Shown here in pieces: positions 11,093 through 27,564 of a stretch of DNA of 32,000 nt. The stretch is from Tannockella kyphosi (GTDB taxonomy: Bacteria > Bacillota_I > Bacilli_A > Erysipelotrichales > Coprobacillaceae). Every line of letters starts with the position of its first letter. Position 1 is the stretch's first letter. The notes below the pieces were generated by a model, which was given only the letters and a program-made list of their open reading frames with translations, had not been told where the DNA came from and made no database searches. The stretch spans positions 210,001 through 242,000 of the forward strand of contig NZ_CP088239.1 of the NCBI RefSeq assembly GCF_021054785.1. Reading direction: 5' to 3'. Both the position numbers and the translations under genes were made by a program.

Positions 11093-12382
11093 ATGAGCAC
11101 AGTTGCTATTCATACATTAGGTTGTAAAGTAAATAGTTATGAATCTCAAGCGATGTTAAAAGAGTTTGTAGAACATGGTTATAATGAAGTTGATTTTAAA
11201 AGTGAGGCAGATGTATATGTTATTAACACATGTACTGTTACAAATACCGGAGATAGTAAATCTAGACAAATGATTCGTAAAGCGATTCGTAACAATCCAA
11301 ATGCGATTGTTTGTGTAGTTGGGTGTTATAGTCAAATAGCACCAGATGAAATAGAAGCGATTGAAGGAGTTAGTGTTGTTTTAGGGACGCAGTATCGTAA
11401 TCAAATTATGCAGTTTGTGGAACAATATCAAGAGACAAAGGAAACAATTATAAAGGTTGATAATGTAATGAATCTTCAAAAGTTTGAAGATTTAAATATT
11501 GATCGTTTTAAAAATACAAGAGCTTATATAAAAATACAAGATGGTTGTAATAATTTTTGTACATACTGTATTATCCCTTACGCTAGAGGACGAGTGCGTT
11601 CTAGAATAAAAGAAAGTGTTTTAGAACAAATTGCTACTCTTGTAAAAAAAGGATATGTTGAAATAGTGTTAACAGGTATTCATACGGCAGGATATGGAGA
11701 AGATTTTGAGGATTATAATTTTTATTGTTTATTAAAAGACATTGTTCAAATAGAAGGATTGAAAAGATTACGTATCTCTTCTATTGAAATAAGCCAATTA
11801 ACAAAAGAAATCATGGAATTAATTGAAGATAGTCATATTATTGTGGATCATTTGCATGTACCACTACAATCTGGACATGATGCAACCTTAAAGCGTATGA
11901 ACCGTAAATACAATACAGAGCAATATCTTGCAAAAATAAAAGAAATAAAAGAACATATCCCAACTGTAAAATTCACTACAGATGTTATTGTTGGTTTTCC
12001 AGGAGAAACAGTAGAAGAATTTGAAGGGACTTATGCATTTATTCAAAAAGTAGGATTCTCTATGTTACACGTATTCCCATATTCAATTCGTAAAAACACG
12101 CCTGCTTCAAAAATGAAAGATCAGGTAAATGATCAAATAAAACATGAAAGAACAACAAGATTAGTACAATTATCAAATCAATTATTAGAAGAAACTTCTA
12201 AACAAGCAATTGGAGAAACTTATGAAGTATTATTTGAAAAGAAAGTTGGTGATGGCTATATCGGTCATGCAACTAACTATTTACAAGTAGTAGTAGAAAG
12301 TGACAAAAATATAATAGGTACAATTCAAAAAGTAGTTGTCGAAAGTTATGATGAAAAATTAAAGGGACGAGTGGTGGAATAA
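11093..12382 (+). CDS. mtaB: tRNA (N6-threonylcarbamoyladenosine) 2-methylthiotransferase MtaB
   Basis: Has the UPF0004 N-domain Cys triad (GCKVNSYE..NTCTV..GC), the radical SAM motif GCNNFCTYCIIPYARG and a C-terminal TRAM-like domain. Confidence 0.9.
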   Translation: MSTVAIHTLGCKVNSYESQAMLKEFVEHGYNEVDFKSEADVYVINTCTVTNTGDSKSRQMIRKAIRNNPNAIVCVVGCYSQIAPDEIEAIEGVSVVLGTQYRNQIMQFVEQYQETKETIIKVDNVMNLQKFEDLNIDRFKNTRAYIKIQDGCNNFCTYCIIPYARGRVRSRIKESVLEQIATLVKKGYVEIVLTGIHTAGYGEDFEDYNFYCLLKDIVQIEGLKRLRISSIEISQLTKEIMELIEDSHIIVDHLHVPLQSGHDATLKRMNRKYNTEQYLAKIKEIKEHIPTVKFTTDVIVGFPGETVEEFEGTYAFIQKVGFSMLHVFPYSIRKNTPASKMKDQVNDQIKHERTTRLVQLSNQLLEETSKQAIGETYEVLFEKKVGDGYIGHATNYLQVVVESDKNIIGTIQKVVVESYDEKLKGRVVE

Positions 12383-13851
12383 TGAAAAAACTAAACGAAT
12401 TATTTACAACTGAAAATGAAATGGCTGTTTATTCAATACATAGCGATTCTCGCTATGTATTACCACATTCTATTTTCTTTTGCATTGAAGGATTAACAGT
12501 AGATGGGCATCAGTATGTAGAAGATGCTATTTTTCAAGGTGCAAAATGTATTGTACATAGTCGTGAGTTAGATAATTATCATCCTAAGATTCAATATATA
12601 AAGGTTAGTAACACATTAAATGAATTAAATCGTGTTGCTGATTTATTTTATGATTCTCCTAGTTCGAAAATGAAAGTAATAGGAGTTACTGGAACTAGTG
12701 GTAAAACGGTAGTAGCTTCCTTTATTCATCAAGTATTAAATGAGTATTGTAAAGCTGGTTATATTGGGACATTATCTTTGATGTATAACAATGCTCAAAT
12801 AGAAACACCTTATACTACTCCAGAAACTGTATTTTTACAAAAACATTTGTTTCAAATGGCAAAAAGTGACGTAAAAGTAGTTGCTTTGGAAGCATCAAGT
12901 TATGGACTTGCATTAGGAAGAATTGATGGAGTTGATTTTGATATTGCAGTAGTTACTAATATTGGAGATGAACATTTAGAGTTTCATGGAACAAAAGAAC
13001 AATATGTAGCATGCAAACAAAAGTTATTTGAAAAAGTAGGGCCTAATCAGTATGCCGTAATTAATAATGATGATCATTTTGCTAGAAAGATGAAAGAAGT
13101 AACGAAAGCAAAATGTATTAGTTATGGTATGAATGAAAAGTCAGATATTATGGCTACGGATGTTTTGTTATCCTTGGAAGAAACAATATTTAATTTATAT
13201 ATCGGTGATCAAATAAATAGAATTAGAACACCATTATTAGGTATTCATAATGTTTATAATTTATTAGCAGTAGCAGCAACTTTAAAAGCAGTAGGTAGTG
13301 ATAATGAAATGATTTGTCAGTCTTTACAAAAAAACTTTCAAGTACAAGGTAGATATGAACCTTATACTAGTTATTATGGTGCAAAAGTAATTGTGGACTA
13401 TTGTCATACATTACAAAACTATAAAGATATATTCCAATTTGTAGACAAAACAAAAAACCCTAGTGCAAGAGTATTTGTTGTTCTTGGTTTGCCTAGTAAA
13501 AGAGAAATTCGTAATCGTGAAAAAATTGGAGAATTAGCAAACTATTATGTAGACCATGTTATTATCACTAGAAGTGATGAACGTGGAGAATCATTGCAAG
13601 CAATTGGGGCTATGATACAAAAACCAATAGTAGATATTCCTAGTATTATTATTGAAGATCGTCAAATAGCTATTGAACAAGCCTTACAATTAGCAAGTAA
13701 AGATGATATAGTAATGGTATTAGGAAAAGGACATGAAGATTTTATGGCCTTAGAAACGGGGAAAGTCGCTTATTTAGGGGATGGGACTATCGTTGAAAAT
13801 ATAATAAAATATGAAGGAGAATTAGAAAATGAATTACAGTGGAATGATTGA
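12382..13851 (+). CDS. Mur-ligase family protein, MurE-like (UDP-MurNAc-L-Ala-D-Glu:amino acid ligase) with atypical C-terminal motifs
   Basis: MurE-type motifs [35 protein letters not shown] and GKGHEDF are present. The usual GCGGDRD and DNPR motifs are replaced (see findings). TGA stop. Confidence 0.8.
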
Positions 13852-14669: not shown

Positions 14670-15359
14670 ATGAGGATACTAGTTTGTGAAGATGAAGAGA
14701 ACTTAAACAGATTAATAAGTAAAAAATTAAAATTAGAAGGATATGCTGTAGATAGTTGTTTTAACGGAGAAGAGGGACTTTATTATGTAGAGCAAACAAT
14801 CTATGATTTAGTTATTTTAGATGTGATGATGCCTATTATGGATGGACATCAATTATTAGATGCAATGCGTAAAGCAGGAATAGAATATCCGGTATTGTTT
14901 CTAACAGCAAAAGATTCGAATGAAGATATTGTGGAAGGCTTGGATTTGGGTGCAAATGACTATGTAATAAAACCTTTTACTTTTGATGTTCTACTTGCAA
15001 GAGTGAGAATGTTACTTAGAACAAGACCAAGAGGAAGTGCTACTATTTTATCTATTTATGACATGAAAATAGATATCTCAAAAAGAGAAGTGAGAAGAAA
15101 TAATGAAATTATTGTTTTAAGTGCAAAGGAATATGCGATTGTAGAATATTTGGCATATAATAAGGATGTTGTGGTAACAAAGGAACAAATAGAAGAGAAC
15201 ATATGGGACTACGATAGTGAAATAGGAACTGGATTAGTGAAAGTATATATTAGTTATTTACGTAAAAAACTTGATGATCCTTATGAAAGGAAGTTAATAC
15301 ATACAGTTAGAGGAATAGGATATGTATTACGCAGTGAAAACAATGAGTCTAAAGATTAA
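14670..15359 (+). CDS. OmpR-family response regulator
   Basis: Receiver motifs DLVILDVMMPIMDG, LTAKD and KPF are present. The winged-helix C-terminus ends ...TVRGIGYVL. A strong SD (AAAGGAGG) lies upstream. Confidence 0.92.
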   Translation: MRILVCEDEENLNRLISKKLKLEGYAVDSCFNGEEGLYYVEQTIYDLVILDVMMPIMDGHQLLDAMRKAGIEYPVLFLTAKDSNEDIVEGLDLGANDYVIKPFTFDVLLARVRMLLRTRPRGSATILSIYDMKIDISKREVRRNNEIIVLSAKEYAIVEYLAYNKDVVVTKEQIEENIWDYDSEIGTGLVKVYISYLRKKLDDPYERKLIHTVRGIGYVLRSENNESKD

Positions 15360-16653
15360 ATTATCTATCTATAATGCACTACTAATGTCTATGATGGTTG
15401 TTATTGTAATAGCGTTCTTAATTATGATTAGTGGAAATGTTGTAGTAAGTAGTTCCCAAAATACATTAACAGAAGCAGTGGAAGAAGTAGCAGATGAAGT
15501 AGAATATGAAAAAGGTAAAATTGAAATAGATGATGATGTTTATTATAGTGATCAAGTTTCTATTTTGATATATAGTAGTCAAGGTGTCTTGTTAGAAGGA
15601 GTAAATAATCATAATATTGATGAATCACTAAGCAATGGACAAATTGGAACAATAACAATAGATGGTAATGAGTATATGTATTATGATGTCTTTGTTGGTG
15701 ATGAAAATTTATTTGTTCGTGGGATTGTTTCTACAAGTGCTATTACGGGAGTGCTAGATGAAGTATTTCGAATAGCGATTATTATGTTACCTACATTTAT
15801 TGCTATTTCATTTGCCGGAAGTTATTTCTTATGTAAAAGATCATTTAAACCTTTGGATAATGTGATTGAAACAGCAGAAAAAATAAGCAAAGAAGATGAT
15901 TTAACATTAAGGATTCATCCTGAAAACAAAAAAGATGAAATAACAAGACTTGCTATTACATTTGATAAAATGATGGAAAAGTTAGAGAACATGATGAAAG
16001 TAGAAAAACAATTTACATCCGATGTATCCCATGAATTGAGAACACCTGTCTCTATTATTCTTGCAGAATGTGAAATAGCAAAGAATGGCACACAAGAAGA
16101 ATTAAATCAATCTGTGCAAGGAATAGAAAAACAAACTATCAAGATTAAAAATTTAATTAATCAATTATTAAATCTTGTAAGATTAGAAAATGGCATTCAT
16201 AAACTAGAACTTGAAACAGTAGATCTAAGTGAATTAATAGAATTAATATGTAATGAACAAAGAAAAGTATTACCATCATCAATCACCATAGAAGATGATA
16301 TTCAAGAAGGTATTACTTATTTATTAGACTATACGATGATTTCTAGAGTAATCGTAAATCTAATTAATAATAGTATAAAATATATTGGACAAGGCAGTAC
16401 AATAAAAGTGAGTCTTGCCCAAACACAAGAAACAATTCATATTACGGTAGCAGATGATGGGATAGGGATTCCTGCTTCTGGAATAGAAAATATATTTACT
16501 AGATTTTATCAAGTAGATAAAGCAAGAAATGGTGATAGCATGGGATTAGGTTTATCGATGGTGAAACAGTTAGTAGAATTACATGGTGGCCAAATTGGTG
16601 TAACAAGTGAGTTAGACAAAGGAAGCACATTTGTAATCACATTAAAAAAATAG
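15322..16653 (+). CDS. sensor histidine kinase (two TM segments, HAMP-like linker, HisKA + HATPase_c)
   Basis: Has the H-box SHELRTP, N-box NLINNSIKY, G1 DDGIGI and G2 GLGLSMV. The start at 15322 has a GAGGA SD 7 nt upstream, and an alternative ATG lies at 15343. Either start overlaps the response regulator gene. Confidence 0.9.
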   Translation: MYYAVKTMSLKIKLSIYNALLMSMMVVIVIAFLIMISGNVVVSSSQNTLTEAVEEVADEVEYEKGKIEIDDDVYYSDQVSILIYSSQGVLLEGVNNHNIDESLSNGQIGTITIDGNEYMYYDVFVGDENLFVRGIVSTSAITGVLDEVFRIAIIMLPTFIAISFAGSYFLCKRSFKPLDNVIETAEKISKEDDLTLRIHPENKKDEITRLAITFDKMMEKLENMMKVEKQFTSDVSHELRTPVSIILAECEIAKNGTQEELNQSVQGIEKQTIKIKNLINQLLNLVRLENGIHKLELETVDLSELIELICNEQRKVLPSSITIEDDIQEGITYLLDYTMISRVIVNLINNSIKYIGQGSTIKVSLAQTQETIHITVADDGIGIPASGIENIFTRFYQVDKARNGDSMGLGLSMVKQLVELHGGQIGVTSELDKGSTFVITLKK

Positions 16654-16663
16654 GAGAGAAAAA

Positions 16664-17743
16664 ATGAAAAAGAAAATAGTAGTAGCATTAGTAATGCTAG
16701 CAGTAGTAATAGTGGGACGAACGATTAGTTATGCATTAGAAGTATCAAAAACGAATAATGATGTTGTAGAAATAGTAGAAGATACAGTAATTGCAACAAA
16801 TGATTCTTATATTGGAGAAGATGCAGCAAGCACAGTAGCATTTGAGCATGCAGGTGTTGAAGAAAGTGCAGTAACAAATTTAGTAGTTACTTTTGATTTC
16901 GATGATGGAGTAGCAGAATATGAAGTAGATTTCAATGTTGATACAACAGAATATGATTATGAAATTAATGCACTAACAGGAGCTGTTATTGGATATGATA
17001 AAGATGTTGAAAAAACACAAAGCACTACTTCTAGTAGTACATCAACAAGTTATATTGGAGAAACAAAAGCAAAAGCTGCTGCTTTCACTCATGCAAATAT
17101 AAATGAAAGTGATGCCTCTAATGTAGTAGTTACTTTTGATTTCGATGATGGAGTAGCAGAATATGAAGTAGATTTCAATGTCGCTACAACAGAATATGAT
17201 TATGAAATTAATGCACTAACAGGAGCTGTTATTGGATATGATAAAGATGTTGAAAAAACACAAAGCACTACTTCTAGTAGTACATCAACAAGTTATATTG
17301 GAGAAACAAAAGCAAAAGCTGCTGCTTTCACTCATGCAAATATAAATGAAAGTGATGCCTCTAATGTAGTAGTTACTTTTGATTTCGATGATGGAGTAGC
17401 AGAATATGAAGTAGATTTCAATGTCGATACAACAGAATATGATTATGAAATTAATGCACTAACAGGAGCTGTTATTGGATATGATAAAGATGTTGAAAAA
17501 ACACAAAGCACTACTTCTAGTAGTACATCAACAAGTTATATTGGAGAAACAAAAGCAAAAGCTGCCGCTTTCACTCATGCAAATATAAATGAAAGTGATG
17601 CCTCTAATGTAGTAGTTACTTTTGATTTCGATGATGGAGTAGCAGAATATGAAGTAGATTTCAATGTCGATACAACAGAATATGATTATGAAATTAATGC
17701 ACTAACAGGAGCTATTTATGAATTTAGTGTGGAAAGAGATTAA
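16664..17743 (+). CDS. secreted/membrane-anchored protein with four tandem PepSY-like modules
   Basis: An N-terminal hydrophobic signal/anchor (KKKIVVALVMLAVVIVG) is followed by four repeats of an ~81-aa unit. The unit reads ...A.AFTHA.I.ESD..NVVVTFDFDDGVAEYEVDFNV.TTEYDYEINALTGAV... and units are joined by Ser/Thr-rich linkers. Confidence 0.85.
   Translation: MKKKIVVALVMLAVVIVGRTISYALEVSKTNNDVVEIVEDTVIATNDSYIGEDAASTVAFEHAGVEESAVTNLVVTFDFDDGVAEYEVDFNVDTTEYDYEINALTGAVIGYDKDVEKTQSTTSSSTSTSYIGETKAKAAAFTHANINESDASNVVVTFDFDDGVAEYEVDFNVATTEYDYEINALTGAVIGYDKDVEKTQSTTSSSTSTSYIGETKAKAAAFTHANINESDASNVVVTFDFDDGVAEYEVDFNVDTTEYDYEINALTGAVIGYDKDVEKTQSTTSSSTSTSYIGETKAKAAAFTHANINESDASNVVVTFDFDDGVAEYEVDFNVDTTEYDYEINALTGAIYEFSVERD
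16805..17740 (+). repeat. 243-bp tandem repeat, ~3.9 copies, within the PepSY gene
   Basis: Unit starts lie at 16805, 17048, 17291 and 17534, an exact 243-nt period. Units 2-4 differ only by isolated substitutions (e.g. gtcgctaca vs gtcgataca, gctgctgct vs gctgccgct). Unit 1 diverges in its first ~75 nt. Confidence 0.95.
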
Positions 17744-17763
17744 AAGTAGGGACTGTATTTAAA

Positions 17764-17800
17764 AGAAAGGATAGACACTTGGGGTCTATCCTTTCTTGTT
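17764..17800 (+). terminator. probable terminator after the PepSY gene
   Basis: A 13-bp perfect stem (agaaaggatagac / gtctatcctttct) is present, but the downstream T-tract is interrupted (ttgttcatttc). Confidence 0.6.
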
Positions 17801-17821
17801 CATTTCTAAGATCATATTGAA

Positions 17822-17865
17822 TAAAAAAAGATATACATGTGAAGTTTTACTTTACATGTATATCT
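17822..17865 (-). terminator. rho-independent terminator of the minus-strand PRD gene
   Basis: A 12-bp perfect stem (agatatacatgt / acatgtatatct) lies 2 nt after the stop codon. On the minus strand it is followed by a run of seven or more T. Confidence 0.75.
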
Positions 17866-17867
17866 AG

Positions 17868-18560
17868 TTAAACTAAAGGATTGTTTTTTTGTTGATTCAT
17901 TGCAACAATGAAGTGAAGTGTTAAATAAGCAATTTCATCATCACTAAATACAGTATCATATTTTTCTTTAACAATAGGATTTAATAATGCAGCATATTTA
18001 AATTCTTCTGGATGACGTTCTTTGATTTTTTCAACTAATGGATTATCTAATTGTTGATTGTTTTTTAAACGATAAATAGCTTGTTGTAAATGTAATCCTA
18101 CAGTAGTTACAATTTTATCGCTAGATTCAATTTTAAAACCATAAGTTTTATCAATGTCTTCTAAAACCTTTAATAAGATATTCACTACTTCATCTTCTAA
18201 AAAGTCAAAGCTAGGAATCATATCTACATCTAATAAATTATTATTTGAAAAATACATAGTAATTAAATCAATTTCATTTTCAGGAAAACTAACTCCATAT
18301 ACTTCTTCTATTTTATGACAAATAGTAGCAGCTAAATTATGAAATTCATTGTTTTTAAAAACACTTAATTGACTACTGCTTAGTTCAATATAATTTTTAG
18401 CTTGTAATCTTATAATTGCAATTGATAAGTGTGTAGCAATATTTTGAATATTAGAGTCTAATAAGTCTATATGTAATGCGTTGATTTCTGTTTTAATTAA
18501 ATTTAAAATATCATCTCTTGTTTGTGCAAATGATTCATTTGTTAGTTGTATGCTCATCAT
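17868..18560 (-). CDS. stand-alone PRD-domain protein (two PRDs, BglG/LicT-like, no CAT RNA-binding domain)
   Basis: PRD1 reads IATHLSIAIIRL ... VSFPENEIDLITMYF. PRD2 reads VGLHLQQAIYRL ... DDEIAYLTLHFIVAM. The track start at 18578 is TTG. The tandem ATGs at 18560/18557 sit just after GGGGGAGG, so one of them is the likelier start. Confidence 0.8.
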   Translation of the reverse strand: MMSIQLTNESFAQTRDDILNLIKTEINALHIDLLDSNIQNIATHLSIAIIRLQAKNYIELSSSQLSVFKNNEFHNLAATICHKIEEVYGVSFPENEIDLITMYFSNNNLLDVDMIPSFDFLEDEVVNILLKVLEDIDKTYGFKIESSDKIVTTVGLHLQQAIYRLKNNQQLDNPLVEKIKERHPEEFKYAALLNPIVKEKYDTVFSDDEIAYLTLHFIVAMNQQKNNPLV

Positions 18561-18645
18561 TTCCTCCCCCGTTTTCAATTATTTTTTAAGTCATGTAATA
18601 TAATATATTATATGCCCAAAAAAAGCTATAAAAATTTAATTAATT

Positions 18646-18674
18646 TTGATAAAGCATATAGGTGGAAATATAAA
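18646..18674 (+). promoter_or_regulatory. candidate sigma-A promoter (distal) upstream of pflB
   Basis: TTGATA, a 17-nt spacer, then TATAAA. Confidence 0.35.
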
Positions 18675-18738
18675 AAAGAAATTGGTATATTATTAGGGTG
18701 TTATAGCAAAAAAACTTTGAAATTTAAGTATAATTCCA

Positions 18739-18767
18739 TTGTTTGCTAAGATAGTAAGTGCTATAAT
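18739..18767 (+). promoter_or_regulatory. candidate sigma-A promoter (proximal, extended -10) upstream of pflB
   Basis: TTGTTT, a 17-nt spacer, then TATAAT preceded by TGC (TGn extended -10). It lies ~37 nt upstream of the pflB ATG. Confidence 0.5.
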
Positions 18768-18803
18768 GATTGAGGAATTTAAATAAAACAGGAGGATCGT
18801 AAC

Positions 18804-20855
18804 ATGAATTTAGAAAAAGAATGGAACGGCTTTGTTGAAGGTAAATGGGTAAAAGAAATTAATTTAAGAGAATTTATCCAATTAAACTATACTCCATACA
18901 ATGGAGATGACACTTTCTTAGCTGGACCAACAAAAGCAACTCTTGATCTTTGGGATCAAGTAATGGATTTAACAAAGAAAGAAATTGAAGCTGGTGGCGT
19001 ATTAGATATGGACACTAAAGTAGTTTCTTCATTAACATCACATGCTGCAGGGTATTTAAACAAAGAAATTGAAACAATTGTAGGTTTCCAAACAGATAAG
19101 CCTTTCAAAAGATCATTACAACCAAACGGTGGTATCCGTATGGCTGAAAAAGCTTGTGCTGATAATGGATATACTGTAGATCCTGAAATCGTGGAAATTT
19201 TCACGAAATATAGAAAAACTCACAATGCAGGAGTATTTGATGCTTATACACCAGATATGCGTGCTTGTCGTTCATCTCACATTATTACTGGATTACCAGA
19301 TGCTTATGGGCGTGGACGTATTATCGGAGACTATCGTCGTGTAGCTTTATACGGGGTAGATTTCTTAATCAAAGATAAAAAACATCAATTAGATACATCT
19401 CATGTACGTATGAATGCAGAAAATATTCGTACTAGAGAAGAATTATCTGAACAAATTCGTGCTTTAGGTGAATTAAAACAAATGGGTGCAATTTATGGTT
19501 TTGATATTTCTAGACCTGCAAAAGATGTAAAAGAAGCAATCCAATGGACATACTTCGGTTACTTAGCTGCAGTTAAAGAACAAAATGGTGCTGCAATGTC
19601 TTTAGGTAGAACTTCTACATTTATCGACATCTTCGCACAAAGAGATATCGCTAATGGTGTATATACAGAACAAGAAGTACAAGAAATGGTTGACCATTTC
19701 ATTATGAAATTACGTTTAGTAAAATTCGCTCGTACTCCAGAATACAACGAATTATTCTCAGGAGATCCAACTTGGGTAACTGAAACAATCGGTGGTGTTG
19801 GTGTAGATGGACGTCATTTAGTTACTAAAACTAGTTTCAGATATTTACATACATTAACAAACTTAGGAACTGCTCCTGAGCCAAATATGACAGTATTATG
19901 GTCTACTAACTTACCAGCAGAATTCAAAAGATATTGTGCAAAAATGTCAATTCAAACTTCATCAATTCAATATGAAAATGATGATTTAATGCGTGTAACT
20001 CATGGTGATGATTATGCAATCGCATGTTGTGTATCTTCAATGAGAATTGGTAAAGAAATGCAATTCTTTGGAGCTCGTGCTAACTTAGCAAAATGTTTAT
20101 TATACGCTATCAATGGTGGTATAGATGAAAAATCTGGAAAACAAGTAGGACCTAGATTCAGAGCTGTTGAAGATGGTGTATTAGATTATGAAGATGTAAA
20201 ACAAAAATTCGTAGATATGATGTCATGGTTAGCTGGTGTTTATGTAAACTCATTAAACATTATCCATTATATGCATGATAAATATTGTTATGAAAGAATC
20301 CAAATGGCTTTACATGATCGTGAAGTAAAACGTTATTTCGCAACAGGTATTGCTGGTTTATCAGTAGTAGCAGATTCACTGTCAGCTATTAAATATGCAC
20401 AAGTAACTCCAGTAAGAAATGAAGCTGGTATTGTTGTGGATTACAATATTGAAGGAGATTTCCCTAAATATGGTAATGATGATGATAGAGTAGATGAAAT
20501 TGCTAACTGGTTAGTTTCAACTTTCATGGATTTAGTTCGTTCTCATCATACTTATAGAGATGGTGTACCAACTACTTCAATCTTAACAATTACTTCTAAT
20601 GTAGTTTATGGTAAAGCAACTGGTAATACTCCTGATGGACGTAAATCTGGTCAACCATTTGCACCAGGTGCAAACCCATTACATGGTAGAGATACAAACG
20701 GTGCTGTTGCTTCATTAGCATCTGTAGCAAAATTACCTTTCTCTGATGCCCAAGATGGTATCTCAAATACATTCTCAATCATTCCTGGAGCTTTAGGAAA
20801 AGATGATCAAGTATTTGCAGGTGATTTAGAAGTTGAATTAGATTTAAATAAATAA
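18804..20855 (+). CDS. pflB: pyruvate formate-lyase catalytic body lacking the C-terminal glycyl-radical domain
   Basis: PFL-like from the N-terminus ([36 protein letters not shown]) through the Cys-Cys site IACCVS to [12 protein letters not shown]. It then ends in an acidic tail [15 protein letters not shown] and TAA. It has no RVSGY motif. An SD (AGGAGG) lies upstream. Confidence 0.9.
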
Positions 20856-20857
20856 AG

Positions 20858-21064
20858 ATGGAAACTTCAGATAAAGATATTGACGCTCTAATAGCAATGT
20901 TAGATGGTCAAATGAAAAAAGGATCAAAACATGTAAATATTGCTGTAGAAGATCCTACAAATATGAATGCTTCTATCACTCAAGTTAAAGCTGGTATAGA
21001 TTGTGACAGTGGTGACACTGCATGTAAAATACCTAACTTAATGACGGGTTTAGATCAAGAATAA
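20858..21064 (+). CDS. 68-aa degenerate paralogue of the glycyl-radical domain (function unknown, could be a decaying duplicate)
   Basis: The ATG lies 2 nt after the pflB stop and has no SD. The N-terminal half ([22 protein letters not shown]) parallels the next ORF ([22 protein letters not shown]), including a 16-nt identical DNA stretch. The C-terminal half is diverged. Confidence 0.5.
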
Positions 21065-21077
21065 AGGAGATAATTCT

Positions 21078-21320
21078 ATGAGTTCAAATAGACAACAAGA
21101 AGAAAATCTAGTAGCAATGTTAGATGGATATGTAGAAAAAGGTGGACATCACTTAAATGTTAATGTTTTTACAAAAGAAACATTAATAGATGCGCAAGCT
21201 CACCCAGAAAACTATCCACAATTAACTGTACGTGTATCTGGATATGCTGTTAACTTTGTTAAATTAACAAAAGAACAACAAGATGACGTAATTTCTAGAA
21301 CTTTCCACAGTCAAATGTAA
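21078..21320 (+). CDS. autonomous glycyl-radical domain protein (GrcA/YfiD-like, equivalent to the PFL C-terminus)
   Basis: Contains ...GGHHLNVNV...[39 protein letters not shown], the canonical PFL C-terminus with the RVSGY radical signature. It has its own SD (AAGGAGA, 21064-21070) 7 nt before the ATG, and a terminator follows. Confidence 0.88.
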
Positions 21321-21325
21321 TAATG

Positions 21326-21352
21326 AAAAACGGATGAAAATCCGTTTTTTTT
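21326..21352 (+). terminator. rho-independent terminator after the glycyl-radical minigene
   Basis: Stem aaaaacgga / tccgttttt with loop tgaaaa, followed by a T-run. Confidence 0.8.
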
Positions 21353-21367
21353 ATTTTCTTTTTCTTG

Positions 21368-21396
21368 TTGATTGTTTTCGTGAAGAGGCGTATCAT
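21368..21396 (+). promoter_or_regulatory. candidate promoter of the ABC transporter pair
   Basis: TTGATT, a 17-nt spacer, then TATCAT. An SD (AAGGGAG) lies 7-8 nt before the ATG at 21418. Confidence 0.4.
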
Positions 21397-21417
21397 TGAT
21401 GGTAAGGGAGTGATTGG

Positions 21418-22740
21418 ATGTTTCATTTTATTTATCAATGTATGTTAGGACAAAAGAAATTATATATCATTATGCTTGTTGTTTTGACATTACTTGCAAC
21501 AATTGAATTGTATTTTGCAGGGATATATACTGCTTTTATGGGATTAAGTGGATCAAGTGCCTATATTATCCGAACACTTGCTACTTTTATATCTTTTTTA
21601 TCCTGTTTTTTAACTTTGTTTATTAATCAGTTTTTCTTAGAAGGAAAAACGGAAGAATTATCTATTTTTATGATTACTGGTGGATCTGCTAAAAAAAGTT
21701 TATCTTATATTATTATTCAGTTTGGTATATTTTATGTAGTTGCTACTTTATTAGCGATACCATTAGGTGCTCTTGCATTATCTATGACAATTAATTTAGT
21801 TGCAATACAATTAGATACGATTATTCATATTTCATTATTATCTTTATTATCTATCTTTGGTAGTTTTGTTATTATGAAGTTAATATTTGTTTTATTATTA
21901 AATGTTAGTTTTTTAAATCGTGTAGCGATTTCAATTTATAAATATATGACTAGTACAGGTAAACCATCCGAACAGTCAAATGATTTCTTTTCTCAGTTAC
22001 CAAGAACAGGAAAGGCAAAGTTTCCAGTAGGATCATTTTTTATTGTAGCAATGACTATTGTTTTGTTTTTTGTAGGAATAAAAGGATTAGTTTCTTTTGA
22101 AGAAGATATGAGTTCTTTGTTATTTTCGATTGTAGTATTACTGGTATCTTTTTTATTAGTCATTAATACTTGGATTCCATTATCTTTTAATCTATTTCAT
22201 GATCGTTATTTAATGAAAAAGCCTTTTTTGTTATTTAGCCTTTGTTATATTAAACAAACTATGAAAACGATGAGTGCAATGATTAATATGAATGCGATAT
22301 TTATACCAATGACATTATGTTTATTTGTACTACCAGTATTTGATGGGAGTTATACTATCTTTTTAATGATTTGTTACATTGCTTTAATGTTGATGTTGTT
22401 TTTAGGATTTTTTATCCGTTTTCATGTTTATTTACCTACAAAATCAAGAGATATTGCAACAATGAGAGCATTAGGATATAAAGATATATTTATTATTCGT
22501 ATTCAAAAAGTAGAAGTATTTACTTTTGTGTTTTTAACTTTTATATTACCTTTTCTATGTTTTAGTTATGTATTAGGGCAAGGTTATTTACAAGGATTTA
22601 TATCTTTGGGGGTTATCGGAGTAGTTTTAATAATTTATGTTTTCTTTTATGGAATGTTTAGTATCTATATTTATTGGTGTTATCAAAAACAAGCAAAGGA
22701 GGTATTAGGTGATGTCAGATATCTTAATCGAAGTGAGTAA
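21418..22740 (+). CDS. ABC transporter permease with two FtsX-type modules (about 10 predicted TM segments, no large extracellular domain)
   Basis: Highly hydrophobic. Two FtsX-like cytoplasmic loop signatures are present: EGKTEELSIFMITGGSAKKSLSYII and KSRDIATMRALGYKDIFIIRIQ. Confidence 0.8.
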   Translation: MFHFIYQCMLGQKKLYIIMLVVLTLLATIELYFAGIYTAFMGLSGSSAYIIRTLATFISFLSCFLTLFINQFFLEGKTEELSIFMITGGSAKKSLSYIIIQFGIFYVVATLLAIPLGALALSMTINLVAIQLDTIIHISLLSLLSIFGSFVIMKLIFVLLLNVSFLNRVAISIYKYMTSTGKPSEQSNDFFSQLPRTGKAKFPVGSFFIVAMTIVLFFVGIKGLVSFEEDMSSLLFSIVVLLVSFLLVINTWIPLSFNLFHDRYLMKKPFLLFSLCYIKQTMKTMSAMINMNAIFIPMTLCLFVLPVFDGSYTIFLMICYIALMLMLFLGFFIRFHVYLPTKSRDIATMRALGYKDIFIIRIQKVEVFTFVFLTFILPFLCFSYVLGQGYLQGFISLGVIGVVLIIYVFFYGMFSIYIYWCYQKQAKEVLGDVRYLNRSE

Positions 22741-23977
22741 TGTTTCTAAAATATATGATCAGGATATTCTCTTGAAGAGAGGAACTAATTTTTATGCTTT
22801 AAATAATGTAAATTTTGTTTTAGAAAGAGGAGATTTTATAGCAATTATGGGACCAAGTGGTTCTGGTAAATCAACATTATTGAACTGTATGTCTTCTTTG
22901 GATGCAATTACGAAAGGTACTATTGAATTAAAAGGAAAGAATTTAGGAGCTTATAGTAACCAAGAATTAAGTGATTTTAGATATCACGATTTAGGTTTTA
23001 TTTTTCAAAACCATAATTTAATATCAACACTTAGTATTTTTGATAATATTGCTTCCACACTATATTTAGGTGGACAAGATTCAAAAGATATTTATAAAAG
23101 AGTATTAGAAATAGCAGAGCAATTAGATATTATGGAAATTCTAAAAAAGAAACCAAATGAATGCTCTGGTGGACAACGTCAAAGAGCTGCTATTGCAAGA
23201 GGGTTAATTAATAATCCAGATATATTAATATGTGATGAACCAACAGGAAATTTAGATTCTAAAAATTCTCATGAATTTTTAAAACTATTAACTGATTTAA
23301 ATGAAAAAGGAACTTCTATTGTTTTAGTAACTCATGATAGTATGATTGCTAGTTATGCTAAGAAGTTAGTTTATTTAAGAGATGGGCAAGTTCATCATAT
23401 TGTAGAGAGAAAAGATAGTAGTCAAGATGTATTCTTTCAACAAATAAACTCAATTACAAATAAAGATAGTTTGGTTCATCTTTTTGGTAAAAGCGAAGAA
23501 GTAGAATTGAGATCAGATTTAGTAACGGATGTTTCTGTACATGGAGAAGGTAGTCGTTATGATGTTTATGCTATTTTTAATGAAAATCCAGAAGAGTTAG
23601 AGAAAATGAAGTTTCAACCATGTTTACAATGTAATCATGAGGTTTTTGAATATGTTCGTACAGGAGAAAAGATATATGTAAAAGATATCAAAAAAGTAGA
23701 ACTATTTATGATTAGTAAATTGGTAATGATGATGATTGCAGAATATCATTTCTATGTTTTAGTAAAAATACATACAGAGAGTACGGTATATGATTATCGT
23801 TTCTTAAATGAAAATAATTTAACAGAATTTTTCCAAATATTATTAGATAATAATATTGAAATAGATGATCCAATGGAATTGATTGATTTATTTAAAAAGA
23901 ATAGTGGAGATTTTAGGAGACTTCGTTATTTACAATCTAAAAGAAAAGTGTTTGTAGATACATATGGAATGAAATAG
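22709..23977 (+). CDS. ABC transporter ATP-binding protein (MacB/LolD/BceA-type) with a ~190-aa C-terminal extension of unknown function
   Basis: Has Walker A GPSGSGKST, the Q-loop, signature SGGQRQR, Walker B ILICDEPT and the H-loop VTHD. A GTG at 22709 or ATG at 22712 follows AGGAGG. It overlaps the permease gene by ~30 nt. Confidence 0.88.
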   Translation: MMSDILIEVSNVSKIYDQDILLKRGTNFYALNNVNFVLERGDFIAIMGPSGSGKSTLLNCMSSLDAITKGTIELKGKNLGAYSNQELSDFRYHDLGFIFQNHNLISTLSIFDNIASTLYLGGQDSKDIYKRVLEIAEQLDIMEILKKKPNECSGGQRQRAAIARGLINNPDILICDEPTGNLDSKNSHEFLKLLTDLNEKGTSIVLVTHDSMIASYAKKLVYLRDGQVHHIVERKDSSQDVFFQQINSITNKDSLVHLFGKSEEVELRSDLVTDVSVHGEGSRYDVYAIFNENPEELEKMKFQPCLQCNHEVFEYVRTGEKIYVKDIKKVELFMISKLVMMMIAEYHFYVLVKIHTESTVYDYRFLNENNLTEFFQILLDNNIEIDDPMELIDLFKKNSGDFRRLRYLQSKRKVFVDTYGMK

Positions 23978-24047: not shown

Positions 24048-24782
24048 ATGGAAGGATATATTCATTCATTAGAGTCATGTGGAACAGTAGATGGACCAGG
24101 GTTGCGTTTTGTGGTTTTTTTACAAGGATGTCCATTGCGTTGTAAATATTGTCATAATCCAGATACATGGAAACCAAATGTTGGTAACAAAATGAGTGTT
24201 AGTGATATTTTAAAGAAATATAATAAAAAGAGTAGTTTTTATAAAAATGGAGGAATTACTGTTACTGGTGGTGAACCATTGATGCAAATGGAATTTGTTA
24301 CGGAGTTATTTAAAGCTTGTAAAAATGAAGGAATTCATACTTGTTTAGATACTTCAGGTGTAACTTTTACTCCGGGTAAAACAGAAAAGTTTGATTTATT
24401 AATGATGTATACTGATTTAGTGATGCTAGATATTAAACATATTGATAATGTAGAACATAAGGAATTAACAGGATTGGATAATGGGAATATTTTATCATTT
24501 GCTAAATATTTAGATAAAAAGAATATTTCTGTTTGGATTCGTCATGTTGTTGTACCAACGATTACACAAAATGATAAGTATTTAAAACAATTAGGTAATT
24601 TTATAGGAACATTACATAATATCAAAGCATTAGATGTGTTACCTTATCATGTGATGGGAAGATCGAAATATCAAGAAATGGGGCTAACCTATCCTTTAGA
24701 AGGAATTGAACCCTTAGATAAAGAAGATGCAATTAAAGCAAGAACTATCATTCTTGAAGGAATGAGAGAAGTAAGAAAATAA
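24048..24782 (+). CDS. pflA: pyruvate formate-lyase activating enzyme (radical SAM)
   Basis: Starts with GYIHS.ES.GTVDGPG and carries the cluster motif CPLRCKYCHNPD and GGITVTGGEP. Length is 244 aa. Confidence 0.93.
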   Translation: MEGYIHSLESCGTVDGPGLRFVVFLQGCPLRCKYCHNPDTWKPNVGNKMSVSDILKKYNKKSSFYKNGGITVTGGEPLMQMEFVTELFKACKNEGIHTCLDTSGVTFTPGKTEKFDLLMMYTDLVMLDIKHIDNVEHKELTGLDNGNILSFAKYLDKKNISVWIRHVVVPTITQNDKYLKQLGNFIGTLHNIKALDVLPYHVMGRSKYQEMGLTYPLEGIEPLDKEDAIKARTIILEGMREVRK

Positions 24783-24914: not shown

Positions 24915-25478
24915 ATGTCACTTATTCAAAAAGAAGTAGTAGATTTTAAAGTACAAGCGTTTGTAAATAACGAGTTTCAAGAGGTAACAAAAGCAGATAC
25001 ATTAGGGAAATGGGCTGTTTATTTCTTTTATCCAGCGGATTTTACATTTGTTTGTCCAACTGAATTAGAAGATTTAGCAAATAAATATGAAGAGTTTACA
25101 GCAATTGATTGCGAGGTTTATAGCGTTTCTTGCGATAGTCATTTTGTGCATAAAGCATGGCATGATGCATCGAAAACAATTAAAAAAATCAAATATCCAA
25201 TGTTAGCAGACCCAACAGGTGTTTTAGCTAGAGGATTTGATGTAATGATCGAATCAGATGGTATGGCAGAAAGAGGAAGCTTTATCGTTAACCCTGAAGG
25301 GAAAATCGTAGCTTATGAAGTATTAGCAGGAAATGTAGGACGTAATGCCGATGAATTATTCAGACGTGTACAAGCGTTACAATTTGTAGCAGAACATGGT
25401 GATGAAGTATGTCCTGCAAAATGGAAACCAGGGGAAGAAACTTTAAAACCTAGTTTAGATTTAGTGGGATTACTTTAA
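24915..25478 (+). CDS. ahpC: alkyl hydroperoxide reductase subunit C (typical 2-Cys peroxiredoxin)
   Basis: The peroxidatic Cys lies in FTFVCPTE and the resolving Cys in EVCPAKW. Length is 187 aa, with a strong SD. Confidence 0.95.
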   Translation: MSLIQKEVVDFKVQAFVNNEFQEVTKADTLGKWAVYFFYPADFTFVCPTELEDLANKYEEFTAIDCEVYSVSCDSHFVHKAWHDASKTIKKIKYPMLADPTGVLARGFDVMIESDGMAERGSFIVNPEGKIVAYEVLAGNVGRNADELFRRVQALQFVAEHGDEVCPAKWKPGEETLKPSLDLVGLL

Positions 25479-25480
25479 TA

Positions 25481-25524
25481 AAACAAGACTCTTATCAAAA
25501 TATTCTGATAAGAGTTTGTTTTTT
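25481..25524 (+). terminator. rho-independent terminator (or attenuating hairpin) after ahpC
   Basis: A long stem (caagactcttatca / tgataagagtttg, one bulge) is followed by TTTTTT. Confidence 0.8.
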
Positions 25525-25545
25525 AAAAGAAAGAAGGAGAAAAAT

Positions 25546-25986
25546 ATGAACGAACAATTACATAATGATTTAAATAAGTACTTAGCAGATACAGCAGTAT
25601 TATATATAAAATTCCATAATTTACATTGGAATGTTGTAGGGAAACAATTTAAAAATATTCATGAATACTTAGAAACTATTTATGATGGATTTGCAGATGT
25701 GTTGGATGAAGTAGCTGAAAACATTAAAATGAATGGGCAAACTCCACTAGCATCAATGAAAGATTATTTAGCGGTAAGCACAGTAAAAGAATTAGATAAT
25801 ATTGAAATTTCGGCTTCTGAAACATTAAATATTGCCAAACAAGATATTGCTTCTATTAAAGCTTTTGGGGAAGCAATTCGTAAAACTGCAGGTAATGAAG
25901 ATTGCTATGATGTGGTTAGTATGATGGAAGGGCATTTAACTAATTATAATAAGACTTTATGGTTCTTAGAGGCAATGACAAAATAA
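25546..25986 (+). CDS. dps: Dps-family DNA-protection/ferritin-like protein
   Basis: Ferroxidase-site residues occur in FHNLHWNVVG...IHEYLE...DEVAE. The start is set at the ATG at 25546, 6 nt after AAGGAGA. The track's TTG at 25516 lies inside the ahpC terminator. Confidence 0.9.
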   Translation: MNEQLHNDLNKYLADTAVLYIKFHNLHWNVVGKQFKNIHEYLETIYDGFADVLDEVAENIKMNGQTPLASMKDYLAVSTVKELDNIEISASETLNIAKQDIASIKAFGEAIRKTAGNEDCYDVVSMMEGHLTNYNKTLWFLEAMTK

Positions 25987-27564
25987 ATGGAAAAGATATA
26001 TGATATGATTATTATTGGAGCGGGACCAGCAGGTCTTTCAGCTGCAATATATGGTGCAAGAGCTAAATATAAGGTATTAGTTTTAGAAAAAGAAAAAATT
26101 GGTGGTCAAATTACGATTACTCATGAAGTCGTAAACTATCCAGGTATTATGGAAACTAGTGGTGAAGAATTAACACAAGGTATGTTAAAACAAGCACAAA
26201 GATTTGGTGCAGAATTTAAGATTAGTGAAGTGGTAGATATTATTGATGAAGGTGACTTCAAAATACTAAAAACAACTACTGGTGACTATAAAACACTAGG
26301 TGTTATTCTAGCACCAGGGGCAAATCCTAGAGTACTAGGATTTGAAGGAGAAAAGAAATTCCAAGGTAGAGGAGTAGCTTATTGTGCTACTTGTGATGGA
26401 GAATTCTTTAAGGATAAAGAAGTTTATGTAGTAGGTGGTGGTTTTGCGGCAGTAGAAGAAGGGATTTTCCTTACTAAATATGCATCAAAAGTACATATGA
26501 TAGTTCGTGAAGAAAACTTTACATGTGCAAAAACAGTTTATGAAAAAGTAGCTTTAGAGCCTAAAATTGAAACTTATTTCCAAACAGAAGTTCAATCAGT
26601 AAATGGGGAACAAACTTTGGAAAGTATTACTTTAACAAGCGAAGGAAAACAATGGACAGTTGAACATCCAGATGGTTTTGGTGTCTTTGTGTTTGCAGGA
26701 TATGTTCCTAATACAAGTTGGTTACCAAAAAGTATTGAATTAGATAAGGGTTATATTGTTACTGATATTAATAGAAAAACAAATGTGGATGGTATTTATG
26801 GTGCTGGAGATGTTTGTATTAAGAATTTAAGACAGGTAGTAACAGCTGTTAGTGATGGAGCTTTAGCTGCTACTTCTTTAGAAAAGGTAGTCCATGATTT
26901 ACATAGTAAATTAGATTTACCTGAGTTTGTTCAAGAAGTAGTAGAACAAAAAGAAGAAGTGAAGGCTACTAGCTCAGATGCTTTTATTAGTGATCAAATA
27001 AAAACACAGTTAGCACCAATATTTGGTAAGTTTGAAAAGAAAGTTCTGATTAAAGGATATTTATCTAATGATAAATTATCTATGGAATTAGAAGGCTTTT
27101 TAGCAGAATTTGCAACGATTAGTGATAAAGTAATGATTCAAAAAGAAACATCATCTACTGGATATCTAGAGTTATGTTATGAAGATGGAAGCAGTAGTGG
27201 GATATCTTTCTATGCTGTTCCTGGAGGACATGAGTTTAATTCATTTATTGTGGCTCTTTATAATGTTGCTGGGCCAGGGAAAGATATTTCTAATGAAGAT
27301 TTAGATAAAATAGCAGCTATTCAAAAAGACACTAAAATACAAGTATTTATTTCATTGTCTTGTACGATGTGTCCAGAAGTAGTAATGGCAACAGGTACGA
27401 TTGCAGCAAAAAATCAATATGTTCAAACACAAGCTATTGATATTGCTCATTTTCCAGAATTAAAAGAAAAATACAAAATCATGTCTGTACCATGTATGGT
27501 AATTAATGAAGAAGTAGTTCATTTTGGAAAGAAAAACATATCACAAATATTAGATTTATTATAA
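25987..27564 (+). CDS. AhpF-like NAD(P)H:peroxiredoxin reductase with reversed domain order (TrxR-like module N-terminal, AhpF-NTD-like thioredoxin folds C-terminal)
   Basis: The N-terminus has GAGPAGLSAA (FAD), the redox motif CATCDG, GGGFAAVEEG (NAD(P)H) and GAGDV. The C-terminus reads ISLSCTMCPEVV...MSVPCMVIN, resembling the AhpF N-terminal domain SLSCHNCPDVV...GVPAVF. Confidence 0.85.
   Translation: MEKIYDMIIIGAGPAGLSAAIYGARAKYKVLVLEKEKIGGQITITHEVVNYPGIMETSGEELTQGMLKQAQRFGAEFKISEVVDIIDEGDFKILKTTTGDYKTLGVILAPGANPRVLGFEGEKKFQGRGVAYCATCDGEFFKDKEVYVVGGGFAAVEEGIFLTKYASKVHMIVREENFTCAKTVYEKVALEPKIETYFQTEVQSVNGEQTLESITLTSEGKQWTVEHPDGFGVFVFAGYVPNTSWLPKSIELDKGYIVTDINRKTNVDGIYGAGDVCIKNLRQVVTAVSDGALAATSLEKVVHDLHSKLDLPEFVQEVVEQKEEVKATSSDAFISDQIKTQLAPIFGKFEKKVLIKGYLSNDKLSMELEGFLAEFATISDKVMIQKETSSTGYLELCYEDGSSSGISFYAVPGGHEFNSFIVALYNVAGPGKDISNEDLDKIAAIQKDTKIQVFISLSCTMCPEVVMATGTIAAKNQYVQTQAIDIAHFPELKEKYKIMSVPCMVINEEVVHFGKKNISQILDLL

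Follow-up and report, generated by a model that had tools for sequence, protein, structure and literature searches.

A conserved small protein encoded between the body and the separate radical domain of a split pyruvate formate-lyase in Tannockella kyphosi

Among the glycyl radical enzymes (GREs), pyruvate formate-lyase (PFL) is the most widespread, and it has a central place in anaerobic metabolism. We report the analysis of a 32,000-nucleotide stretch of the Tannockella kyphosi genome (contig NZ_CP088239.1, positions 210,001 to 242,000; hereafter the window, numbered from its first letter), in which this enzyme is encoded in pieces and a small open reading frame, ORF2 (20858-21064, forward strand; 68 amino acids, ATG start), lies between the gene for a truncated PFL body and a separate gene, ORF3, for the glycyl-radical domain. 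Comparison with relatives shows ORF2 to be a real and conserved gene, held under purifying selection at a fixed position in the operon, and it very probably encodes a functional protein of the PFL system. Judged from its sequence, ORF2 is best explained as the small subunit of a naturally three-piece PFL consisting of the body, ORF2 and a detachable radical domain, GrcA3. A preliminary description of this DNA had regarded ORF2 as a degenerate tandem copy of the radical domain and had offered three explanations for it: a decaying remnant of the duplication that split pflB, a plug or regulator that competes with the real radical module for the body, or a scaffold for assembly.

The truncated pflB body (18804-20855, forward strand; 683 amino acids) was delimited with Pfam, TIGR01255 and an alignment to Escherichia coli PflB, whose sequence was taken from a RefSeq genome. 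Its Pfam matches are PFL-like and, of the 106 positions of the Gly_radical profile, positions 1-51 only. Despite scoring above the TIGR01255 cut-off (1111.8 bits, cut-off 994.2), it covers positions 2-668 of the 744 in that model and is not a full-length PflB with its radical domain; in the alignment it ends at about E. coli residue 690, and the glycyl-radical domain beyond that point is absent. The C-terminal tail of the body (20808-20852, forward strand) resembles a degenerate remnant of the first radical-domain helix, and a 'GD-h-D/E-h-D/E' element closes most of the split PFL bodies seen. ORF3 (21078-21320, forward strand; 80 amino acids) is a free-standing glycyl-radical domain with the motif RVSGYAV. 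It matches positions 50-106 of the Gly_radical profile, aligns with E. coli PflB 684-759 and belongs to NF038360, the NCBIfam family named 'autonomous glycyl radical cofactor GrcA3' (161.4 bits, cut-off 158; profile positions 2-78 of 78 covered). A strong Shine-Dalgarno (SD) sequence for ORF3, AGGAG, lies at 21065-21069 on the forward strand (duplex energy -9.1 kcal/mol; median of the relatives -11.8), a hairpin forming an intrinsic terminator (21325-21350, forward strand) ends the body-ORF2-ORF3 operon, and no terminator-like sites were seen between these three genes. The gene for the PFL-activating radical SAM enzyme, pflA (24048-24782, forward strand), was identified by Pfam and TIGR02493 (305.8 bits against a cut-off of 231.75) and has Radical_SAM and Fer4_12 as its only Pfam domains. 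It is adjacent to the split operon in most relatives; in the window two ABC-transporter genes part it from ORF3.

The body and ORF3 share one reading frame, with 222 nt (74 codons) between them, and ORF2 is read in a different one. This looks coincidental, since the frames differ in a related locus, L001. An intron- or intein-like insert between the two parts was also considered and is ruled out, both by the differing frames of that locus and by the fact that ORF2 is protein-coding and under selection. A scan of 17700-21600 against Rfam was empty at E<=1, and the gap is thus not accounted for by any known riboswitch, leader or intron.

The case for a functional gene comes from its relatives. 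A direct protein search with ORF2 yielded three homologues of 67-68 amino acids; two could be traced to their loci, where each is flanked by a PFL body on one side and a radical domain of 79-80 amino acids on the other. Scanning one genome per species gave 17 loci, all of Erysipelotrichaceae type, from the genera Coprobacillus, Massilimicrobiota (including the complete genome of M. timonensis, with its locus at NZ_AP031415.1 688264-700446), Stoquefichus, Fimiplasma and Erysipelatoclostridium, and in all 17 an intact ORF of 66-69 amino acids occupies the same position. A profile search of a word-indexed database recovered 104 proteins, and an exhaustive profile search of 1.84 billion representatives recovered 245 clusters (50% identity, E<=1e-3), nearly all of them free-standing proteins of 60-85 amino acids. 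Divergent members on contigs, down to about 25-30% identity, are all located between a body of 679-690 amino acids and a radical domain of 77-82. In 25 of 25 loci the order is truncated pflB body, ORF2 and radical minigene (77-82 amino acids), usually followed by pflA.

Pairwise ratios of non-synonymous to synonymous substitution (dN/dS) for ORF2 range from 0.06 to 0.46 in 14 pairs, above those of ORF3 and the body and far below 1. Residues 48-60 are invariant in 20 loci apart from a single D50E, with 2-4 synonymous codons in use at each position. Among 128 members C56 and P59 are invariant, while conservation reaches at least 90% for D16, H25, C49 and A55; C49, A55, C56 and P59 fall in a core motif, residues 48-61 (20999-21040, forward strand). 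Taken with the intact ORFs in all 25 loci examined and the 245 clusters, these figures dispose of the decaying remnant put forward in the preliminary description.

These proteins form a new family, with the signature I-D-x-[LI]-[VI]-x-M-L-D ... G-x-G-H-x-N followed by C-x(n)-A-C-x-[IV]-P-[NT]-L and an acidic end, in a length of 60-85 amino acids, and ORF2 of the window carries every element of it. There is no Pfam or NCBIfam model for the family, Pfam covers no member meaningfully, and the few members named in the source databases are called 'hypothetical protein'.

As for its expression, the ATG of ORF2 lies 2 nt after the stop codon of the body in the window, as it does in a second locus (L002), and this spacing suggests translational coupling. 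The window copy has no SD sequence of its own, in agreement with the preliminary description (-0.4 kcal/mol against a background median of -2.4). Most relatives have an SD-like purine tract upstream of ORF2 (median -6.7 kcal/mol; AAGGAG in L001), and we expect the gene to be translated.

The preliminary description had based its view of ORF2 on related N-termini and on a tandem repeat, and both observations are borne out. The N-termini of ORF2 and ORF3 are identical at 12 of 30 positions and similar at 21 of 30 (BLASTP, E 1e-7), and at the level of families hhalign aligns ORF2 with the radical domain over residues 1-36 only (96.7%, E 3.6e-10). In the DNA, the sequence TAGCAATGTTAGATGG occurs exactly at 20892 and 21112, without a further match even when one mismatch is allowed; no exact 16-mer arose in 100 shuffles, and zero are expected. 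It is part of a direct repeat of 60 nt with 72% identity at an offset of 220, the upstream copy lying at 20887-20946 and the downstream copy, within ORF3, at 21107-21166 (both forward strand). The same region in relatives is identical at 29-43 of 66 nt, with exact runs of 5-12 nt. The 16-nt identity stands at the top of this range and reflects an old duplication combined with shared residues and codon bias, with no recent copying. A recent gene conversion was considered as the source of the 16-mer and is unneeded, given the similar level of identity in the relatives.

Residues 1-36 of ORF2 (20858-20965, forward strand) are, by BLASTP, hhalign and AlphaFold2 (AF2), a copy of the first helix and strand beta10 of the radical domain. 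Residues 1-30 align with about 681-709 of E. coli PflB, which comprise this helix and strand; the helix and a strand matching beta10 of the radical domain (GGxHLNVNV) are both present, and D16, G22, H25 and N27 are kept as the equivalents of E. coli D690, G702, H704 and N706. Past residue 36 hhalign detects no homology to the radical domain. The RVxG[FWY] finger loop and the C-terminal helix are missing from ORF2, which ends instead in an acidic tail. Nor is ORF2 a member of the PF01228/GrcA family by the curated cut-offs: NF038360 matches residues 4-31 only, with 22 bits against its cut-off of 158 (E 1.3e-4), there is no Pfam match at E<=1, and only 3 of the 128 family members touch PF01228 at all (best E 0.002). 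The term 'degenerate copy of the radical domain' is accurate for the helix and beta10 half and not for the remainder, which is a separate Cys motif.

Within that remainder the preliminary description had set TQVKAGIDC against the signature TVRVSGYAV and taken the glycine as retained. This equivalence fails, both for want of homology past residue 36 and on account of the glycine itself, G46, which is Lys in most relatives. G46 and G52 cannot be read as degenerate radical glycines, since family-wide conservation is lacking for both; position 52 is E or P in P0090 and P0086, and the wider family does not keep its glycine. MAFFT pairs the ORF2 segment C-K-I-P-N-L (21026-21040) with K/N-Y-P-Q-L (21207-21221), a segment found ahead of the glycine loop both in E. 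coli PflB and in ORF3. If this pairing were real the tail motif would also be derived from the radical domain; hhalign gives it no support.

The C-terminal half has its counterpart elsewhere in the split enzymes. Among the weak matches was P0104, a PFL C-terminal fragment, traced to no contig, that continues directly into a tail with the Cys motif, and a search with it found a second kind of split body, which we call type B. At their C-terminus these bodies carry GD-h-D-h-D, followed by a short linker and then by C-x3-4-C-x-[IV]P[NT][LI], and the last stretch is acidic (examples are P0105-P0112 and the loci L022 5001-5312, L023 1850-2242 and L025 69-431). An 80-aa radical domain follows the type B body directly, and in L022, L023 and L025 pflA comes next. 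The tail is fused to the body and has no copy of the helix and beta10. Residues 36-68 of ORF2 (20963-21061, forward strand) are homologous to these tails (hhalign, 93.7%, E 1.8e-7), so that the C-terminus described at first as having no counterpart indeed has none in ORF3 and yet has a clear one in the body tails of other split PFLs. Type B proteins are undescribed in the searchable literature.

ORF2 is accordingly a mosaic of the radical-domain helix and beta10 (residues 1-36) and a body-tail module (residues 36-68). It probably arose when the junction of body tail and grcA3 was duplicated in tandem and the first copy of the tail was then shortened; such a duplication would leave a body with a short tail and a new ORF that fuses the start of GrcA3 to the tail. 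As the two arrangements show at the sequence level, the tail is interchangeable between body and ORF2, and this interchangeable attachment argues that it acts at the radical-domain site of the body. Two further proteins, P0285 and P0286, have an ORF2-like C-terminal half joined to unrelated N-termini; these may be chimeric gene calls or assemblies, or may show the module in another context.

A third kind of split PFL, type C, has a Lys-rich body tail and no Cys module (P0152, P0154, P0157, P0208, P0209, P0217). In one such locus (L030, 4001-4634) a 79-aa radical domain directly follows the body; its gene calls are fragmented, which suggests that it uses a different genetic code, code 4, and some type C proteins are labelled Mycoplasmoidaceae or Bacilli. 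The Cys module is, on these sequences, widespread but not universal among split PFLs. Body ends like that of the window are also found in records from metagenome-assembled genomes (MAGs) labelled Lachnospiraceae and annotated as 'partial'. Seven such GenBank entries, 'formate acetyltransferase, partial', were noted (P0118, P0137, P0139, P0140, P0147, P0153, P0188); the two whose sequences were examined, P0137 and P0188, end in ...GDIELDLNK, as the window's body does. These entries probably represent whole split bodies, with nothing missing from the gene. A fragment of this kind bears the label Klebsiella oxytoca, probably through contamination.

Modelled alone by AF2, ORF2 reaches a mean confidence score (pLDDT) of 70 with an alignment of 128 sequences and 60 with 30 sequences; a helix (residues 5-21) and a hairpin of two strands (26-32 and 35-42) are predicted with moderate confidence and the Cys tail with low confidence. 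This picture would fit a segment that folds on binding. A Foldseek search of the PDB with the model, itself only moderately confident, returned nothing at E<=0.001, and a search of PDB sequences with the family profile gave no significant match (best E 1.2).

The nearest described parallel is the repair of oxygen-damaged PFL in E. coli by the spare radical domain YfiD/GrcA. When E. coli PFL is cut at residue 695, binding of YfiD is undetectable and activation is 32-fold less (Andorfer et al. 2021, PMC8683613). When the enzyme is cleaved at 734 it keeps beta10 and residues 696-733 and is fully activated, and the authors regard this stretch as a recognition element (PMC8683613). In both systems the body is truncated, the radical domain is a protein of its own and beta10 is present twice: truncated E. 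coli PFL would correspond to the body of the window, the beta10 stub to ORF2 and the incoming radical domain to GrcA3. They also differ. The E. coli stub is a product of oxygen damage and is covalently attached, whereas ORF2 is a separate gene; ORF2 lacks both the region of helix 711-720 and the half glycine loop of that stub and carries the acidic tail Cys-x(n)-Cys-x-[IV]P[NT]L, of which E. coli PFL has no equivalent. Furthermore, YfiD is a spare part in E. coli, while here GrcA3 is the sole radical domain encoded in its operon. Compared with the GrcA families in general (GrcA/YfiD, TIGR04365; GrcA2, NF008341; GrcA3, NF038360), ORF2 is similar in its first 30 or so residues, its size and its operon, but has neither the RVSGY loop nor the C-terminal helix; the GrcA3 member here is ORF3.

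By analogy with this system, the role that we favour, at a confidence that stops a little short of an even chance, is that of an adaptor or gate for the docking of GrcA3 and its activation by PflA. With its beta10-like half ORF2 would dock on the body, and the Cys tail that it presents would serve in recognition or clamping; this would promote or gate the binding of GrcA3 and its PflA-dependent activation. It would in this way be the gene-encoded counterpart of the 696-733 stub of oxygen-cleaved E. coli PFL, and the outcome would be an enzyme whose oxygen-sensitive radical cartridge of 80 amino acids is cheaply exchanged. That the same tail is fused to the body in type B suggests that it works together with the body. 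From such comparisons we infer binding of ORF2 to the body, an effect on the docking or activation of GrcA3, and a role for the two cysteines. Of the functions proposed in the preliminary description, the plug or regulator and the scaffold are both viable, and the sequence data lean towards the adaptor or scaffold.

Several observations weigh against this role. The beta10 strands of ORF2 and ORF3 cannot share one slot in the barrel, so the binding of both would require a rearrangement; the same puzzle arises for the complex of cleaved E. coli PFL and YfiD, where the two beta10 copies must likewise rearrange (PMC8683613). A model of pure docking leaves the two conserved cysteines unexplained, and the likeness to the 696-733 stub is confined to the beta10 part. 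The existence of type C enzymes without the Cys module (L030; P0208, P0209, P0217) means that the module is not universally required, and ORF2 of the window has no SD sequence of its own.

One alternative would turn the same docking half into a competitor. In this scheme, which we judge unlikely, ORF2 cannot be activated and its beta10-like half fills the radical-domain slot of a body free of GrcA3, for instance in one monomer of the dimer or after oxygen damage, so that the active site is shielded or activity is held back until activated GrcA3 displaces ORF2. In favour of such a cap, ORF2 keeps exactly the docking elements, helix and beta10, with the residues invariant in PFL, and has neither glycine loop nor C-terminal helix; its predicted translation upstream of ORF3 from one mRNA is also in keeping. 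However, it is the Cys tail and not the docking half that is most conserved, and type B bodies carry the fused tail but no copy of beta10, so that the function of the tail cannot be competition for the beta10 slot.

The primary role of ORF2 could alternatively be chemical, with the Cys pair on its flexible acidic tail active in redox or metal chemistry; such a role would be compatible with that of an adaptor and strikes us as rather improbable as the explanation of ORF2. The pair might serve as a thiol shuttle or quencher, reducing or protecting the radical site (glycyl or thiyl), as an oxygen-sensing disulfide switch or as half of a metal site that is shared. A work-alike for the thiol shuttle is the Cys pair at the C-terminus of class Ia ribonucleotide reductase. 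The pair itself speaks for such chemistry, C56 and C49 being conserved as described with a spacing that varies from about x2 to x6, as does the flexibility that AF2 predicts for the tail, and ahpC, dps and an ahpF-like gene follow pflA in the window. Two conserved cysteines, however, do not make a complete metal site alone, P59 is as invariant as the cysteines and the strongly conserved [IV]P[NT]L suggests a binding motif, and none of the relatives with inspected flanks showed the ahpCF neighbourhood.

Small subunits rich in Cys that bind metal, in roles that are unclear, are known from other GREs (PMC13450708), which counts in favour of the chemical reading. The beta and gamma subunits of BSS, the gamma subunit of HPAD and the beta, gamma and delta subunits of MASS resemble ORF2 in being small Cys-containing proteins encoded beside the catalytic subunit, and known GRE small subunits modulate radical installation, thiyl formation or stability (PMC13450708; PMC12590467). 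Those of BSS, HPAD and MASS are HiPIP- or rubredoxin-like, with an Fe-S cluster or Fe held by four ligands; in contrast, ORF2 is a predicted helix, hairpin and tail in which only C49 and C56 are conserved, and it lacks the four Cys/His ligands that hold [4Fe-4S] or Fe in those folds.

It is very improbable that ORF2 is instead a substrate of PflA or of another enzyme, being modified or carrying a non-glycyl radical on its A-C-x-x-P loop after the activase has recognised the N-terminus that resembles the glycyl-radical domain. Its operon is shared with a radical SAM activase in most loci, a leader of this kind joined to a conserved Cys core formally recalls precursor peptides, and GREs with a radical at a residue other than glycine are reported (PMC11528403). 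Against this, PflA is a standard PFL activase, above the TIGR02493 cut-off and with no extra domain detected, the RVxG[FWY] context for recognition by the activase is absent from ORF2, some members have E or P in place of G52, and the same tail occurs fused to a 690-aa body. Precursor peptides of the SCIFF type, which are modified by radical SAM enzymes, have multiple core Cys and a dedicated SPASM-type radical SAM maturase; ORF2 differs from them in having two conserved Cys only and a standard PFL activase as its radical SAM neighbour. Least credible of all is a dead remnant of the duplication that split pflB. In its favour, the N-terminal similarity and the DNA repeat make a duplication origin evident, the window copy lacks an SD sequence, and the rate of evolution is higher for ORF2 than for ORF3 and the body. 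Against it, all 25 loci, which reach down to about 25-30% identity, have an intact ORF, its dN/dS is well under 1, its invariant motif is encoded by varying synonymous codons, and relatives have SD-like sequences.

Further genes around the operon were noted. The two overlapping genes between grcA3 and pflA (21418-23977, forward strand) encode a 440-aa multi-pass membrane protein without a Pfam match and an ABC ATPase extended at its C-terminus by 200 unassigned residues. Directly after pflA, ahpC, a Dps/ferritin-like gene and a gene for an AhpF-like disulfide reductase with a thioredoxin domain (24915-27564, forward strand) form an oxidative-stress cluster that adjoins the oxygen-sensitive enzyme system. 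In two distant split-PFL loci, a gene for a small 2x[4Fe-4S] ferredoxin follows pflA (L023 3358-3528, L027 7753-7923), and this ferredoxin may be the electron donor for the activase.

Upstream of pflB and on the opposite strand, 17868-18578 encodes a 236-aa PRD-domain protein with a TTG start and two PRD stretches; the same arrangement is found in a distant relative (L020 2031-2705, reverse strand), and the protein may link pfl expression to the sugar status of the phosphotransferase system. The 225-nt leader of pflB has no match in Rfam. Further upstream, at 16664-17743 (forward strand), lies the gene for a secreted 359-aa protein with four PepSY domains in near-identical tandem repeats of about 80-85 amino acids; a two-component system (14670-16653) lies just upstream of it. 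Both the window (11093-13851) and L020 (1-2005) have, upstream of pfl, a pair formed by a MiaB-like radical SAM gene (UPF0004) and a Mur-ligase gene; the two-component system and the PepSY gene sit between this pair and pfl in the window and not in L020.

The NCBI GrcA3 model shows that the free radical domain had already been noticed by annotators. The searchable literature contains no paper on natural fission of PFL, on GrcA2 or GrcA3, or on a protein of the ORF2 type, and a 2026 review lists small subunits for three GREs only, HPAD, BSS and MASS, and not for PFL, and as spare parts YfiD/GrcA only, as an occasional occurrence (PMC13450708). What is new is that in a large clade a separate gene for the radical domain is the rule, and that it comes with a conserved third component that has no family model. 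We raise as a possibility, tentatively, that the PFL of Erysipelotrichales, and apparently that of Lachnospiraceae and other Firmicutes, is a three-part machine, in which GrcA3 would be an obligate exchangeable cartridge and a hitherto unrecognised Cys-pair module would control its loading, its activation or its redox protection; the module would come in two forms, a free protein of 68 amino acids anchored by a duplicated beta10 and a tail fused to the body. If this is true, the module would be the first accessory subunit of PFL and a natural, evolved version of the spare-part repair of E. coli. The naturally separate pieces make testable both the need of YfiD for residues 696-733 and the way in which two beta10 strands are accommodated, and they offer a hint for the design of radical enzymes with a replaceable oxygen-sensitive part.

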